A DNA stretch of 64,000 nt from Escherichia coli. GTDB lineage: Bacteria; Pseudomonadota; Gammaproteobacteria; Enterobacterales; Enterobacteriaceae. A program made the position numbers. This document shows, in pieces, positions 3,001 to 9,000 of this stretch. Location: assembly GCF_022846255.1 (NCBI RefSeq), contig NZ_AP025682.1. One strand, written 5' to 3'. Each line of letters begins with the position of its first letter. The stretch's first letter is position 1.

Positions 3001-6000
3001 AAAATCATTATTGAAGTACCATCATTAATACCATCATAGGTATTGTTCTCCTTTGGCAACAGTTCTTTGATATCGAAATACTTTAACGAACTTTTTATGA
3101 CATCATACTTTGAAGAAAAAATCACATACTGATTTTCATCCAGTACATCTTGCAAGACAAGGTATAAAACAGGGACTACGATTAAAAATAGCAAAGTCAT
3201 TCACTAAATGAATTCAAAATCAGTGATGTTCTTATCTGCAAGAATATAATATATTTAAAAGATTATAAGCAATATATAAATAATAATATAGCTTTAAAAA
3301 AACACACATGAATTAGAAGTTAAATACATTAATTAAAGAAACAAATAAGTAAGAATTTTGTTTTTAAATAACTCATGCAAACGCATCGTTTATTTATATT
3401 AAAGGAAAATGATGAAATCCAATCTAAATTTAAATAGCTACATTACAAACGAATAGAAAAAGAAGCATTTTCCATGTTAAACTACTATCTTGGTGAAGAC
3501 AGGGGGTATAGCCTTCTGCGGTAGCCTACGCTCTTCGAATGCAAAGCAAGAAAATAACCTTTATAATCAAATTGTTATGCAATGCGCTTGTAGAGCAAAG
3601 GTATCTTAAACGAATAGGTTTAACAGTTAAAGCCTCTTTACATAGGCTGAACAAGGGCAGTACTTGAAAATGATAAAATTGGGGTATGTTTAAAATTATG
3701 AATGCCCATAGTTTAGAGATGAGAAAAGAGTTAGGAGCATATTATACTCCAAGTGCTCTTAGTCAAGTGATGTCAGATTGGGCAATTAGAAGACCAACTG
3801 ATAAAATACTTGAGCCAAGTTTTGGAGGCTGTGGCTTTTTAGAAAGCTGTGAAAAGAGCCTCATGGAGATAGGCTGCATAAACCCAATGGAAAATTTATT
3901 TGGGGTTGATGTAGACCAAAAAGCCTTTGATACTCTCAAAAAAAAATATGGGCATTTATTAATAAAAAAACATTTCATTTTAAGTGATTTCATTAACGTA
4001 TTTCCAAAAGATTTTGGCATTGAAGATTTTGAGGTTATCATTGGGAACCCTCCTTATATCTCTATGCATAATATGAGTTATGAACAAAGGAAGTCCTGTG
4101 AAAAAGTTTTTGCTGACTCACCTTTTAAAACAAAAACATTAGGACGCAATGCAAGTCTTTGGGGGTTTTTCTTACTCCATGCATTAAGCTTCATTCGAGA
4201 AAATGGACGAATAGCGTGGGTATTACCGAGTAGTTTTTTAAATGCCTATTATGCGAAAGAGCTTATAAGAATTTACAAAAATCATTTTAACCATCTAAAA
4301 ATAATAAAGATAAATGAAAGACTTTTCAAAAATGAAGGTGCCGATGAAATGTCAGTACTTTTTTTATGCGATGAGTTTCACAGGACACCTATCAATAATG
4401 GATACGTTTCAATTGGATTTGCTGACACATTAAATGAACTAACCAGCATAATGACTGGAACTAAAGAAAACAAATTAAATAGCTCTGAAAATTACAAATA
4501 TAATATATTAGATATTGACACATTAAATGTGATATCGTCTATAACAGAACATAAGTACAGTTTAAAAATACAGGATATTGCTGATATAAAGATTGGGATG
4601 GTAACCGGCATGAACAACTTCTTTATATTGGATCAAAATCAAATTTTAAAACATAATTTAGACAATAAACATTTTAGACCAGTTATTTCACGATTTTCAC
4701 ATTTGAAGGGAATTCACCACACATTAAAAAGACATACGAAGTTAATTGCAGACAATAAAAAAGGATTGCTATTACACGTCAGTCCAGATGATTTATATGA
4801 AAAACATAGTCCGTTGAGAAAATATTTATCACAAGTTGATAGAAAAGAACGAGTCAAAAACCGCACATTCAAAAAACGAAAAAAGTGGTTTCAACCAGAT
4901 GATGGTATTTACCCAGACGCATTTTTTTCATATATGGTTCATGAGTTTCCCAGAATGATATTAAATAAAGGGAAAGTTAACTGCACTAACTCAATACATC
5001 GTATCTTTTTCAAAGATATAGCATCTAATAAATTAAAAAAAGCATGTTGCATATCTCTTTTATCAACATTTTCACAACTTTCTGCCGAACTTGAAGGTCG
5101 GTCATATGGCTCAGGTGTGCTAAAAATAGAGCCTACCGCAGGAAAGAACATATCATTCTTAATTAAAGATGATTTAATACACGAGTTAAGCAACTTAAGT
5201 AAAGAAATAGATCAATTGCTTTTAAATAATGAAACAAGCAATGCCACTGCTTTAGTTGATAAGTTTTTTGTTGATAAGGGACTAATTAGCTTAGATGAAT
5301 TGAAAAGTCTTAAAAAAGGGTTATTCAGATTAAGAAAAGATCGATATAAAGGGGTCAAAAATTATGAGTGAAGATATTCTTTTTTTGAAGGATAAGATGA
5401 AAGCCCTCCTGGATAATGAGGCTCTCGATTATGATAAAGTATTAGAAACAGCAGTAAAAATCACCGAAAAAGACAACAACAATATTAGATTTTCTGTAGA
5501 TGCGAATTTAGTTAGAAGATTAGGTGAGCAGTTAGTCGCTAAAAAAACTACTGCTGTCAGTGAATTGGTGAAAAATGCTTATGACGCAGATTCGACATTA
5601 GTAAATGTATATTTCGAATTGAACGAAGCAAATCCTCGAATAGTCATATTCGATGACGGCACAGGTATGTCAAAGGAAGATATTATCAATGGATTCATGC
5701 GAATAAGCACAAGTGAAAAAGAAGATAACTCTGTTTCAGAACGATATCAGAGACTAAGAGCAGGTAGAAAAGGTATTGGGCGTTTTTCTACACAGCGATT
5801 AGGAAATTATTTAAAAATAATTACCAAGCAAGAAAATGAAGAGTTAGGATATTTAATAGAAATTAACTGGCAGCAGTTTTCAAAAAAGAAAAATATATCC
5901 TTCATTGCTAACACTATCTCAAAAATCGATGTGGATTTCATTCATGGAACAAAAATAATAATAGAAGATCTGAATGATAAAGATTGGTCTGATGGGAACA

Positions 6001-9000
6001 TAAAAACGGCTTATAAATATATTAAGAGCATTATAAATATTGCCCCAAGCGAGACAGATCCAGGTTTCCAAGTAAAGTTCTATTATAAAAATGCCAATGG
6101 CTATGAATTAGTTGCAGATGAGAAAACTGAAATTTTTTCTGATAGTGATGCTCATATTACAGCAACACTTGAAAATGGAAATGCTGTAGTGAGAGTTAGC
6201 AGTGAAACCCTTGGCATAAAAAATGAAAGCATAGATGTATGGTATGATGAAAAAAATAACATACGAAAATTCTCACATATAAACTCTCCAGTAAAGCTTG
6301 ATGCATACTATTTCTCATTAGCAACAGTTAACTCCAGAAAACAAGCGGCATATTTACGTGAAAATGGCGGAATAAAAATCTATCGAAATGGATTCAAGGT
6401 TTCTCCTTATGGAGAGCAGTATGATGACTGGACGGCTCTTGATGACTCGGTTCGAAGGAGAAAGATATTACCCCCTCATGGTAATCAAAACTTCTTTGGA
6501 CACGTCAAAGTTGAAGACCTAAATGGAATAGACTTTGAAGAAACGTCCTCAAGGGAAGGTCTGATTCATACCGATGCCTTTCAAGAACTTCGCCTCTTTG
6601 TATATAAAGCACTGACGGCTGCGGTAATAAGAATTAGTGAAGCCAGAAATATAAAAATAAATCCAAATGACCGTAGCTATGTTAAAGAAACTAAACCAAC
6701 AATATCAGTCAAAGATAAATTAAATATTGTATCTGAAACGATAAGCTCGGTTAGTAAATTGGTAGATGCAGCAACATCTGTTGATGACGTTTCAAGTGAT
6801 GGTGTCATTAATAACATTGAAGATAAAAGTATAAGAAACAAAATTATTGAAGATCTCCATGAAGCCGCAGATGAGCTAAAACAAGCGAGTGTGATATCTC
6901 AATCTTTAATCGATGAAATTGAGCTTCTTAGAGTGCTTGGCGCTATGGGCCTTGCTATTGGTGAGTTTACACACGAAATAAATTTATCAATAACAAGTTT
7001 GAGTATTAACGTTCAAAACCTTAAACAGTCTAAATTATTAGAGGAAGATAGAGACTCTGCTCTAAATAGCCTTGAAAATAATATTGCAACATTAAAATCA
7101 TTTACTAAATTTTTTGACAGTACTATACGTGAGAATGTAAACAGAAATAAGAAAGTTATTGAGATAAGAGACTCTATTGAGCCATTTTATGAATCGATGA
7201 AACCAATAATAGAACGCAAAGGAATTCAGTTTGCAATACATTATGAAGGTTATGAACTTTTTACGAAGCCGATTCATGTTTCAGAGCTATATTCTGTATT
7301 TATAAATCTCTTTACGAATGCATATAAAGCAATACTTCGTTCTGGAACAAATCCACGAAAAATGTCTTTAACTGCGAAAAAAGATAGTGAAGATATAATT
7401 ATCCGATTCGAAGATAGCGGTGATGGAATTGAACCTGCAAATAGAGAAAGAGTTTTTGAGCCTTTCTATACAACAAGTACACCATCAGGACCTTTTGAAA
7501 GTGATGATTTATCATTAAAAGGAATGGGATTGGGGTTATCAATCGTACGTGATCTCGTTGAATCCATGTCTGCAGAAATATCTATAGTTGATGCATCCGA
7601 TGGTTTTACAACGTGCTTTGAGTTGAGAATTCCAAAAGCTGATGATAAGGAAATACCAGATGACATCTATTAACCTACTTTATATCGATGATGATCAGCC
7701 TCAGCAAGTAAAGGGTTTAATTGAAGCAATAATCAGTAAAGCGAGTTTTGATTTAAATATAACTCATAAACCGCCGACGAAAATGAGTGAAATAGCCATA
7801 GAGTTGAGACAAGGTTATGATGGTATCATCATAGATCAAAAACTTGACAGCTTTGTTGAGGGAGTAGAACCAGTTGATTACTTTGGTGCCGCGTTAGCAC
7901 AAAATTTGCGAACACTCATGGCGGGTAAGTCAGATAATATATCTTATAAGCCAATAATTTTACTCTCTCTCGAAAGCTTATTAATTGAATATTATAATCC
8001 CGATTCAAGCTCGCATGATCTATTTGATTTAGTTTTGAGTAAAAGCATATTAGAACAACCAGAATTGTTAGAAAAAAAAGTTCACTTAATAAAATCTATT
8101 GTGAATGCTTACAAACGTGCACATTCGGAAGACTCGTTATATCAATTGCTTTCTCTGAGCAGTAATTATTCATTGCTTGATAAAAGATTTGAAATATATA
8201 TTTCTCAGTATGATAAAGATATACATAAGCTCGTCACATCCATACACTCCACACTTCTGAGAAGTAGTGGCATGTTAGTTTCTGAGATAACTTTGGCAAC
8301 CAGACTGGGTATTAATATTGAAGAATCGCCAGACTGGCACCAAGTAATTGGGCACCTTGAGGAATATAAATACAATGGCATATTCTCTGATTATTATAAA
8401 AGATGGTGGTGGGCAGATGTAGAGTTGTGGATAAATAAAAAGCTTAACTGCCCAATAATTAAAGGATTAACCTCAGAAAAAAGAGTGGAGATCATCAAAG
8501 AAAAACTTGGCTTAGAACGATTGATGCCAATTCATAGCGTACATCCAGGCCAAAGCACCAAGTTTTGGGTTAATTGTATCATCAGTAAAGAACCTCTTGA
8601 TACAATAGATGCTCTTCGTGCATCATCTATGGAATTAAAACCTTGGGAAGATGATAAATACCTTTCAATTAAAACAGTGTTAGAGAGACGGGCCGAAAAA
8701 TATAAAGTACATCCAGAAGATAGAACAAAATTGGATCGAATTCGGGCGAGGTTTAAATTATAATGAACAATAATACAACTTTGTTAGACGATATGTGTAG
8801 GCTCAGGGACTTTTTATATGATAGCCGCATATGCCCAGATATTAATCCTCTCAACCGTTTAATCAGTAAACTTAATGCAAATCTCCACTCCGAAACAGGG
8901 GAGGACTTTGAATACTCTTTAGACGATTTAGTATTTTATCTTAGCGAAAAATCTGGAACAATTTGTCCGACCCAAATTACACCCAAAGAAAACCCTATTG

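Follow-up and report, generated by a model that had tools for sequence, protein, structure and literature searches.

A 64,000-nucleotide stretch of the Escherichia coli chromosome (RefSeq assembly GCF_022846255.1, contig NZ_AP025682.1; hereafter the window) carries, on a mobilisable genomic island, a four-gene operon whose second product is a 769-residue protein that joins a MutL/MORC-type ATPase to a histidine-kinase core. We read this protein as the sensor-transmitter of a modification-linked defence module that resembles a restriction-modification (R-M) system, and we consider this reading to be about evenly balanced between right and wrong. Compared with this overall picture, the domain identities are far more secure and the nature of the output far less so. 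The four genes lie on the + strand and encode, in order, an N6-adenine DNA methyltransferase, the ATPase-kinase fusion (hereafter the kinase), and two proteins from open reading frames (ORFs) that we term ORF3 and ORF4; RefSeq names them “N-6 DNA methylase”, “sensor histidine kinase” and two hypothetical proteins. Stop and start codons overlap at all three junctions, and on this basis the four genes are co-transcribed as an operon. The first of these overlaps, between the methyltransferase stop and the kinase start codon, reads ATGAGTGA. A scan for promoters and terminators was uninformative, returning 29 promoter-like sites where 33 were expected. The methyltransferase, which has an NPPY motif, is the modification gene of the module, and its Pectobacterium orthologue carries the Pfam domains N6_Mtase, Eco57I and M_Eco57I_C.

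Analysis of the kinase began from a preliminary description of the window, and the motifs quoted there for both ATP-binding domains are each found at the residues given for them. In the N-terminal region these are ELVKNAYDA (residue 67), DDGTGM (97) and GRKGIGRFS (134), all within a Bergerat (GHKL) fold that is recognised by Pfam HATPase_c_3 (Table 1). Alignments of 36 and of 70 sequences reveal E67, N71, D74, D97, G99, G101, G134, K136, G137 and G139 to be invariant in this domain. The N-terminus belongs with MutL/MORC proteins rather than with kinases, as had been proposed, and the overall fold of this half is nearer MutL/MORC than kinases. The size first assigned to it, ~170 residues, was too small: the ATPase module spans ~400 residues and comprises the GHKL domain and a second domain that we read as an S5-type (ribosomal-S5-like) transducer. 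MORCs proper are told apart from paraMORCs by a MORC-specific signature motif (Iyer 2008), and we file the protein, cautiously, as MutL/MORC-like (paraMORC-grade) and not as MORC proper.

Within the transducer-like domain, a strongly conserved block includes Y340, R341, N342, D355, W356, R366, H372, N374, N376, E393, R397 and E398. The surrounding residues 335-400 lie outside both ATP-binding domains and form the most conserved stretch of the protein, with the pattern GGIxxYRNGFxVxPYGE..DDW..LD.S.RRR.LPPH.N.NF.G.V......FEETSSREGL; this stretch matched no PDB sequence. It could be a DNA-contacting or gamma-phosphate-sensing element. The linker that follows consists of three helices of poorly conserved sequence, its consensus being mostly “x”.

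The C-terminal part is a complete histidine-kinase core, in line with the preliminary description, made up of a dimerisation and histidine-phosphotransfer (DHp) region and a catalytic, ATP-binding (CA) domain recognised by Pfam HATPase_c. The H-box FTHEINLSITSL stands at residue 535, and the remaining boxes are intact (N-box NLFTNAYKA at 648, G1 DSGDGI at 684, F-box FEPFYTT at 698 and G2 GMGLGL at 720). Across 36 diverse sequences, E534, F535, H537 and E538 of the H-box are invariant, as are N648, N652, D684, G686, G688, G720, G722 and G724 of the CA domain. A family profile built from 36 diverse full-length relatives aligns over positions 513-760 with the solved kinases ZraS (1.3e-17) and HK853 (2e-15). 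In this alignment the family motif “EFtHEir” lies over “isHELRTPL” and “vaHEIRNPL” of the solved kinases, and H537-E538 sits on the H-E dipeptide of ZraS, ThkA and HK853, the histidine of which is the phospho-acceptor in those kinases. As judged from these residues, the kinase core (the DHp region with H537, plus the CA domain) is catalytically intact. Both domains recur in over 100 full-length homologues (36-46% identity), and with all catalytic residues invariant the fusion is not a product of chance. The protein is soluble and has no transmembrane segment (top 19-residue Kyte-Doolittle mean, 1.37) and no classical sensor domain, again as described initially. The suggestion that the N-terminal ATPase may itself serve as a sensing or DNA-engaging input is a reasonable one.

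The gene downstream of the kinase had been called receiver-like, and its product, ORF3, indeed carries a receiver (REC) domain, followed by a C-terminal domain of ~210 residues. ORF3 is 367 residues long from the RefSeq start and 373 residues long from an upstream ATG, whose numbering we use. Aligned by hhalign against a reference profile of six canonical receivers, it scores 93.5% probability (E 2.4e-7), with D65 over CheY D57. D17 and D65 never vary among 43 sequences, and at least 90% keep D16, S109 and K134. These conserved REC residues mark ORF3 as a predicted phosphotransfer-competent receiver partner of the kinase. Its C-terminal domain contains the motifs LAARLG, RWW, ERV, FWTIC..PLDP.DG and PWQ, and begins with a helix-strand-helix-helix-strand arrangement around LAARLG.

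ORF4 is a histidine-rich protein with the motif WHxD...HPxxHxQxGG...PR..HPP.D, in which H129, H146, P147, H150, P174, R175 and P180 are conserved and D131 is kept by at least 90% of the sequences. A full hidden Markov model (HMM) scan places 1,139 cluster representatives in its family; the best-scoring 150 are all stand-alone proteins, 212-292 residues in length. We regard ORF4 as a candidate effector or effector partner. In a word-indexed search, ORF3 and ORF4 appeared to be rare (20 and 6 clusters); because BLASTP within the loci described below and the full HMM scan found many members, we attribute this rarity to an artefact of the index, both families being large.

Searches for a function of these two proteins gave no match to a family in Pfam, NCBIfam (2026), PADLOC (2023) or PHROGs, and for ORF3 no Pfam match even at E≤10. 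The possibility of a known nuclease or DNA-binding fold in the ORF3 C-terminus or ORF4 was dropped after a profile search against PDB sequences came back empty. A Foldseek search of the PDB with a model of the ORF3 C-terminus joined to ORF4 likewise gave 0 matches at E≤1e-3, with the proviso that a two-domain chimera as query may lower sensitivity. The model itself reached a predicted template-modelling score (pTM) of 0.80 even with a disordered linker, a hint of packing between the ORF3 C-terminus and ORF4. Taking PADLOC, NCBIfam and Foldseek together, we recognised a known nuclease family or fold in none of the kinase, ORF3 and ORF4; of the two halves of an R-M system, the methyltransferase is present and ORF4 is a candidate for the other. 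A phage origin was also considered and dropped, since the PHROGs matches are confined to the generic GHKL and kinase regions, with none in ORF3 or ORF4.

The linkage of these genes extends far beyond E. coli. When a single genome was scanned for each of 100,044 species, 237 loci with a relative of the kinase emerged; 80 of them were analysed together with the window, and the resulting 81 loci span Pseudomonadota, Bacteroidota, Chloroflexota, Nitrospirota, Acidobacteriota, Campylobacterota and Bacillota. BLASTP within the loci finds ORF3 in 75 of 82 sources and ORF4 in 70 of 82, always on the same strand and directly downstream. By automatic count, ORF3 adjoins the kinase in 74 of the 81 loci, ORF4 is present in 69, and kinase, ORF3 and ORF4 are all present in 63. 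A DNA-modification module stands beside this trio in 72 loci. In 65 it is an N6-adenine methyltransferase, encoded immediately upstream (24 loci) or downstream of ORF4 (41 loci) and drawn from two related Eco57I-like N6 families (PADLOC 2.3e-89 and 2.6e-110). In seven loci, all from Bacteroidota, the methyltransferase is replaced by the phosphorothioation genes SspBCD upstream (SspB 2.6e-88, SspC E=0, SspD 6.7e-86). The conserved unit is thus kinase-ORF3-ORF4, with DNA-modification partners that are swapped, and a trio that moves between N6-methylation and phosphorothioation modules behaves as a restriction module.

In the SspBCD loci (L073, 2682-14115; L072, L075, L077, L078, L080 and L081) the trio follows directly after sspB-sspC-sspD. 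Two of them, L073 and L077, have a PbeA-type phosphorothioate-linked nuclease 3' of the trio; if our reading is correct, one modification module would there serve two putative restriction modules. The frequent neighbours of the module are AbiE toxin-antitoxin pairs, a type III-like res/mod pair and integrases, with PbeA in some loci. In L047, L053 and L062, a type III-like pair lies 5' of the kinase and consists of a helicase/res-like protein of ~950 residues and a mod-like protein of ~620-670 residues with a DPPY motif; some of these loci were scored as methyltransferase-free by the automatic count.

More distant relatives preserve parts of this layout. A Paraburkholderia plasmid with a kinase relative at 25% identity has the same order of methyltransferase, kinase, ORF3-like and ORF4-like genes; its ORF3-like protein aligns at 90% hhalign probability over 273 columns, and hhalign also finds the core H.D...HP..H.Q.G motif in its ORF4-like protein. 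The Campylobacter coli plasmid pCCDM224L (L085, 5989-10442) and ~40 similar pTet-type conjugative plasmids encode a full-length kinase relative, also at 25% identity, then a 340-residue protein named “response regulator” by NCBI, and then a convergent dcm C5-methyltransferase. This response regulator resembles ORF3 in the REC region only, and no ORF4-like gene is present at the Campylobacter plasmid loci. The set forms yet another variant of the arrangement, and the plasmids that carry it are clinically common.

The fusion of a MutL/MORC-like ATPase to a histidine kinase had been thought undescribed, a view that does not hold: Bellieny-Rabelo, Pretorius & Moleleki (2021; PMC8011034) reported the HATPase_c_3 + HEF_HK + HATPase_c architecture in 174 of 222 sequences. 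Their proteins are soluble, REC-like genes adjoin them in 91.6% of 644 regions, and their neighbourhoods are enriched in type II R-M genes, mainly C5 methylases and Vsr. In this purely computational work the authors proposed a paraMORC origin and speculated that the proteins form signalling cascades controlling R-M systems. We considered whether the window system belongs to the same HEF_HK/Response_reg_2 family and rejected membership, both Pfam models scoring below threshold. Against the value of 1e-5 used in PMC8011034 for bona fide members, the HEF_HK model (PF19191) matches the window kinase weakly (E 0.0069, 17.3 bits); among 36 kinase relatives none matches at E≤0.001 and five match at E≤0.1, and PF19191 is on record for none of the 120 best kinase homologues. 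Response_reg_2 (PF19192) matches none of 43 ORF3-family members.

We therefore keep the two as sister variants. Both kinases are soluble and share the order HATPase_c_3, DHp with His-Glu, HATPase_c; in each case the neighbour is a REC-like protein without a recognised output domain, R-M genes are linked, a paraMORC derivation is argued, and all that is known is computational. They differ in the conserved third gene, ORF4, found here, and in the modifier, which is an N6-adenine methyltransferase or SspBCD here but mainly a C5-cytosine methylase with Vsr there. Pectobacterium brasiliense, the organism from which PMC8011034 started, also has a system of the kinase-ORF3-ORF4 type, in which the partners have no Pfam annotation. 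The window system is a distinct, widespread variant of a computationally described kind, and its fusion architecture is not in itself new.

Comparison with other systems reveals precedents and differences. MutL/MORC ATPases dimerise on ATP binding and clamp DNA. This ATP-driven dimerisation and clamping is summarised in PMC8011034 and by Iyer, Abhiman & Aravind (2008; PMC2292703). In the latter, paraMORCs act in R-M contexts without kinases, and none of paraMORC1-5 is described with a histidine-kinase core. They are usually partnered by SF-II helicases and by nucleases of the RE fold or HNH type, none of which occurs in the window operon. The closest sequence match of the N-terminal GHKL domain is to the BbrUII/HgiDII restriction enzymes (NCBIfam NF050001, E 2.1e-27), kinase residues 42-206 aligning with profile positions 2-170 at 96 bits, far under the cut-off of 550. 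The same kind of ATPase head thus operates in restriction there; the match is confined to the first ~170 residues, and here transducer, linker and kinase replace the remainder of the enzyme. PADLOC matches of the kinase are to REase_II (2.5e-15), MzaB and TmtA (weak). In the Shedu type I-D protein VcSduA (paraMORC3; Adams et al. 2025, PMC12137116), a validated defence protein, an N-terminal GHKL ATPase is proposed to gate the nuclease that forms the C-terminal output. There the PD-(D/E)xK nuclease is fused in one protein, whereas the kinase core here would signal to separate proteins.

Detocs (Rousset et al. 2023, bioRxiv 10.1101/2023.01.24.525353) is also a single operon of a kinase, a receiver-effector and a third small gene, in which the kinase histidine and the receiver aspartate are experimentally essential; phosphotransfer as the immune signal, shown for Detocs, is what we propose here. 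The two are distinguished by the sensor (TPR repeats in DtcA, but a GHKL module and no matching Pfam TPR model in the window kinase), by the effector (a PNP ATP-nucleosidase in DtcC, but no PNP found by Pfam in ORF3 or ORF4), by the stand-alone receiver DtcB, to which ORF4 has no receiver-domain similarity, and by the modification gene, which Detocs does not have. We rejected identity with Detocs on this architecture; PADLOC indicated no relationship, its coverage of Detocs being unconfirmed.

As for phosphorothioation-linked restriction, Wang et al. (2021, PMC8092258) note that no restriction partner is known for ~84% of sspBCD clusters, and the trio holds the place after sspBCD in seven loci that SspE or SspFGH occupies in SspBCD-SspE and SspBCD-SspFGH. 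The trio itself has no PADLOC Ssp match, and we rejected its identity with SspFGH, as the trio is dissimilar and has neither the Walker A motif of SspF nor the FtsK-like character of SspH (PMC8092258). Our literature search found no experimental work on, and no name for, a kinase-ORF3-ORF4 system. The legend to Fig. 6F of DefensePredictor mentions an unvalidated predicted system with HATPase and REC domains, which may or may not be the window system.

From these comparisons we propose the following mechanism. The MutL/MORC module would replace the sensor domain of an ordinary kinase and act, as in its relatives, as an ATP-gated, dimerising DNA clamp that closes on DNA without the module's own mark. 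Closure would shift the helical linker, carry the signal to the DHp region and turn on autophosphorylation of H537, from which the phosphoryl group would pass to D65 of ORF3. Phospho-ORF3 and ORF4 would then deliver the output, in which the invader is damaged or blocked or the cell is arrested. Host DNA, marked by the cognate methyltransferase or SspBCD, would leave the relay silent. Each element has a precedent by analogy: phosphotransfer in Detocs, GHKL gating in VcSduA and the GHKL head in BbrUII/HgiDII.

Several points weigh against this picture. The cue for the sensor could be unmodified DNA, modified DNA or something else. The automatic count finds no modification gene in nine of the 81 loci; among the nine are several contig ends and at least two loci in which a type III-like mod gene takes its place. 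With ORF3 and ORF4 unmatched in PADLOC, NCBIfam and PHROGs, no curated resource calls the module a defence system. The hint of packing derives from an artificial single-chain chimera, and the start of the ORF3 C-terminal domain is compatible with a winged helix, which would fit a transcription-factor output.

The last point leads to the strongest alternative, in which the kinase and ORF3 are an ordinary regulatory two-component pair whose output is transcription; such a pair might set the expression of the linked methyltransferase or of genes on the island, much as a C-protein or an epigenetic switch would. The layout of ORF3, a REC domain followed by a C-terminal domain with the helix-strand-helix-helix-strand start at LAARLG, is that of a response regulator, and PMC8011034 proposed essentially the same for its own family in the form of R-M-controlling cascades. 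However, the operon contains no restriction enzyme to regulate, Foldseek against the PDB gave no significant match to a DNA-binding fold, and ORF4, with its enzyme-like invariant His/Asp cluster, is nearly as tightly linked as ORF3. The trio also travels as a unit between unrelated modification systems, which is restriction-like rather than regulator-like. We consider a purely regulatory role unlikely.

Abortive infection would likewise make use of the relay, but with a different trigger: the clamp would respond to something specific to the phage (for instance one of its proteins, or replication intermediates), ORF3 and ORF4 would hit a host target and arrest the cell, and the methyltransferase would have another, or a separate self-marking, role. 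A two-component relay works in just this manner in Detocs, the module contains no recognisable nuclease fold, and the AbiE neighbours reveal that such islands gather abortive-infection modules. As a rule, however, abortive systems do not require a modification partner of their own, and the near-obligate pairing with modification in 72 of 81 loci, together with the SspBCD swap, speaks for discrimination of a DNA mark as the central task of the system. We find this explanation quite improbable. Very improbable is a third, in which the kinase core serves only as a dimerisation scaffold or second ATPase of a paraMORC-type DNA-manipulating enzyme, for while paraMORCs work in R-M contexts without kinases and Pfam HisKA-type models barely recognise the DHp region, the joint conservation of H537-E538 with the four CA boxes (N, G1, F, G2) in 36 diverse sequences, and of the full set of REC phospho-acceptor residues in the adjoining ORF3, is hard to account for without phosphotransfer.

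The module resides on a low-G+C island that abuts a tRNA-Leu(CAA) gene as its insertion point (Table 1). The housekeeping genes at 28-32 kb of the window match 5,425 of 5,426 complete E. coli genomes, which assigns the window to the E. coli chromosome; the four-gene operon itself is found in one of these 5,426, TUM11353 (NZ_CP134380.1), where the operon is identical and the island as a whole 99.3% identical. Near-identical proteins are recorded in Citrobacter, Salmonella, Proteus, Erwinia, Klebsiella and Cronobacter. A truncated integrase gene adjoins the left boundary of the island at 2890 and looks like a leftover of an earlier element at the same hotspot; at this flank TUM11353 carries a type I R-M system and an AbiE pair. 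Two small genes at 11581-12473, 3' of the relaxase gene, encode a 196-residue DUF4755 protein (RefSeq) and a 96-residue predicted lipoprotein whose signal peptide ends in LTGC, and a link of either to the operon is not evident.

Table 1. Features of the operon, its products and the surrounding island, in positions of the window.
Feature	Position	Strand	Remarks
N6-adenine DNA methyltransferase	3686-5371	+	561 residues; Eco57I-like gamma class; PADLOC MTase_II 2.3e-89
MutL/MORC-type ATPase + histidine kinase fusion	5364-7673	+	769 residues; ATG start
N-terminal Bergerat (GHKL) fold	5550-5924	+	residues 63-187; Pfam HATPase_c_3 E 3.3e-22
Transducer-like second half of ATPase module	5925-6563	+	~residues 188-400
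Helical linker	6573-6905	+	residues 404-514; helices in structural model: 404-427, 446-474, 488-514
DHp / H-box region	6936-7133	+	residues 525-590; predicted phospho-acceptor H537 (codon 6972-6974), then E538
CA ATP-binding domain	7284-7640	+	residues 641-759; Pfam HATPase_c E 1.4e-17
ORF3	7660-8763 (alternative start 7642)	+	REC + ~210-residue C-terminal domain; predicted phospho-acceptor D65 (codon 7834-7836)
ORF4	8763-9506	+	247 residues; His-rich; start overlaps ORF3 stop by 1 nt
Possible accessory gene	9655-10185		island gene
MobA/TraI-type relaxase	10185-11372		island gene
Tyrosine recombinases, two further	15385-16710 and 16700-17905		island genes
P4-type integrase	19593-20840		island gene
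tRNA-Leu(CAA)	21030-21114		abutted by mobilisable island (~18 kb); insertion point
Low-G+C island	2890-22329		32-40% G+C against ~50% around
Truncated integrase	1949-2818	-	289 residues; covers positions 4-270 only of 413-position integrase model

In sum, the module is a good candidate for a new defence system, not a categorical novelty. Our most specific proposal is put forward tentatively, as possible rather than probable: that kinase-ORF3-ORF4 represents a restriction-type immune module, new and widespread, whose clamp is wired directly to a kinase and whose phosphorelay, on detection of unmarked DNA, licenses an effector formed by the ORF3 C-terminus and ORF4, that it reads N6-adenine methylation or phosphorothioation as “self”, and that it is one missing partner of orphan SspBCD clusters. 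The last two genes of the operon are recognised by none of the defence databases queried, and the copy in E. coli makes cloning and testing straightforward. If the proposal is true, this would be the first restriction-type system to report DNA-mark discrimination by phosphotransfer and not by direct nuclease coupling. The ORF3 C-terminus and ORF4 would be two candidate immune-effector domains with no fold relative detected in the PDB, and some of the ~84% of sspBCD clusters without a partner would gain a candidate for restriction. Prokaryotic MORC/MutL-like clamps, in turn, would gain a biochemical role as signal inputs.

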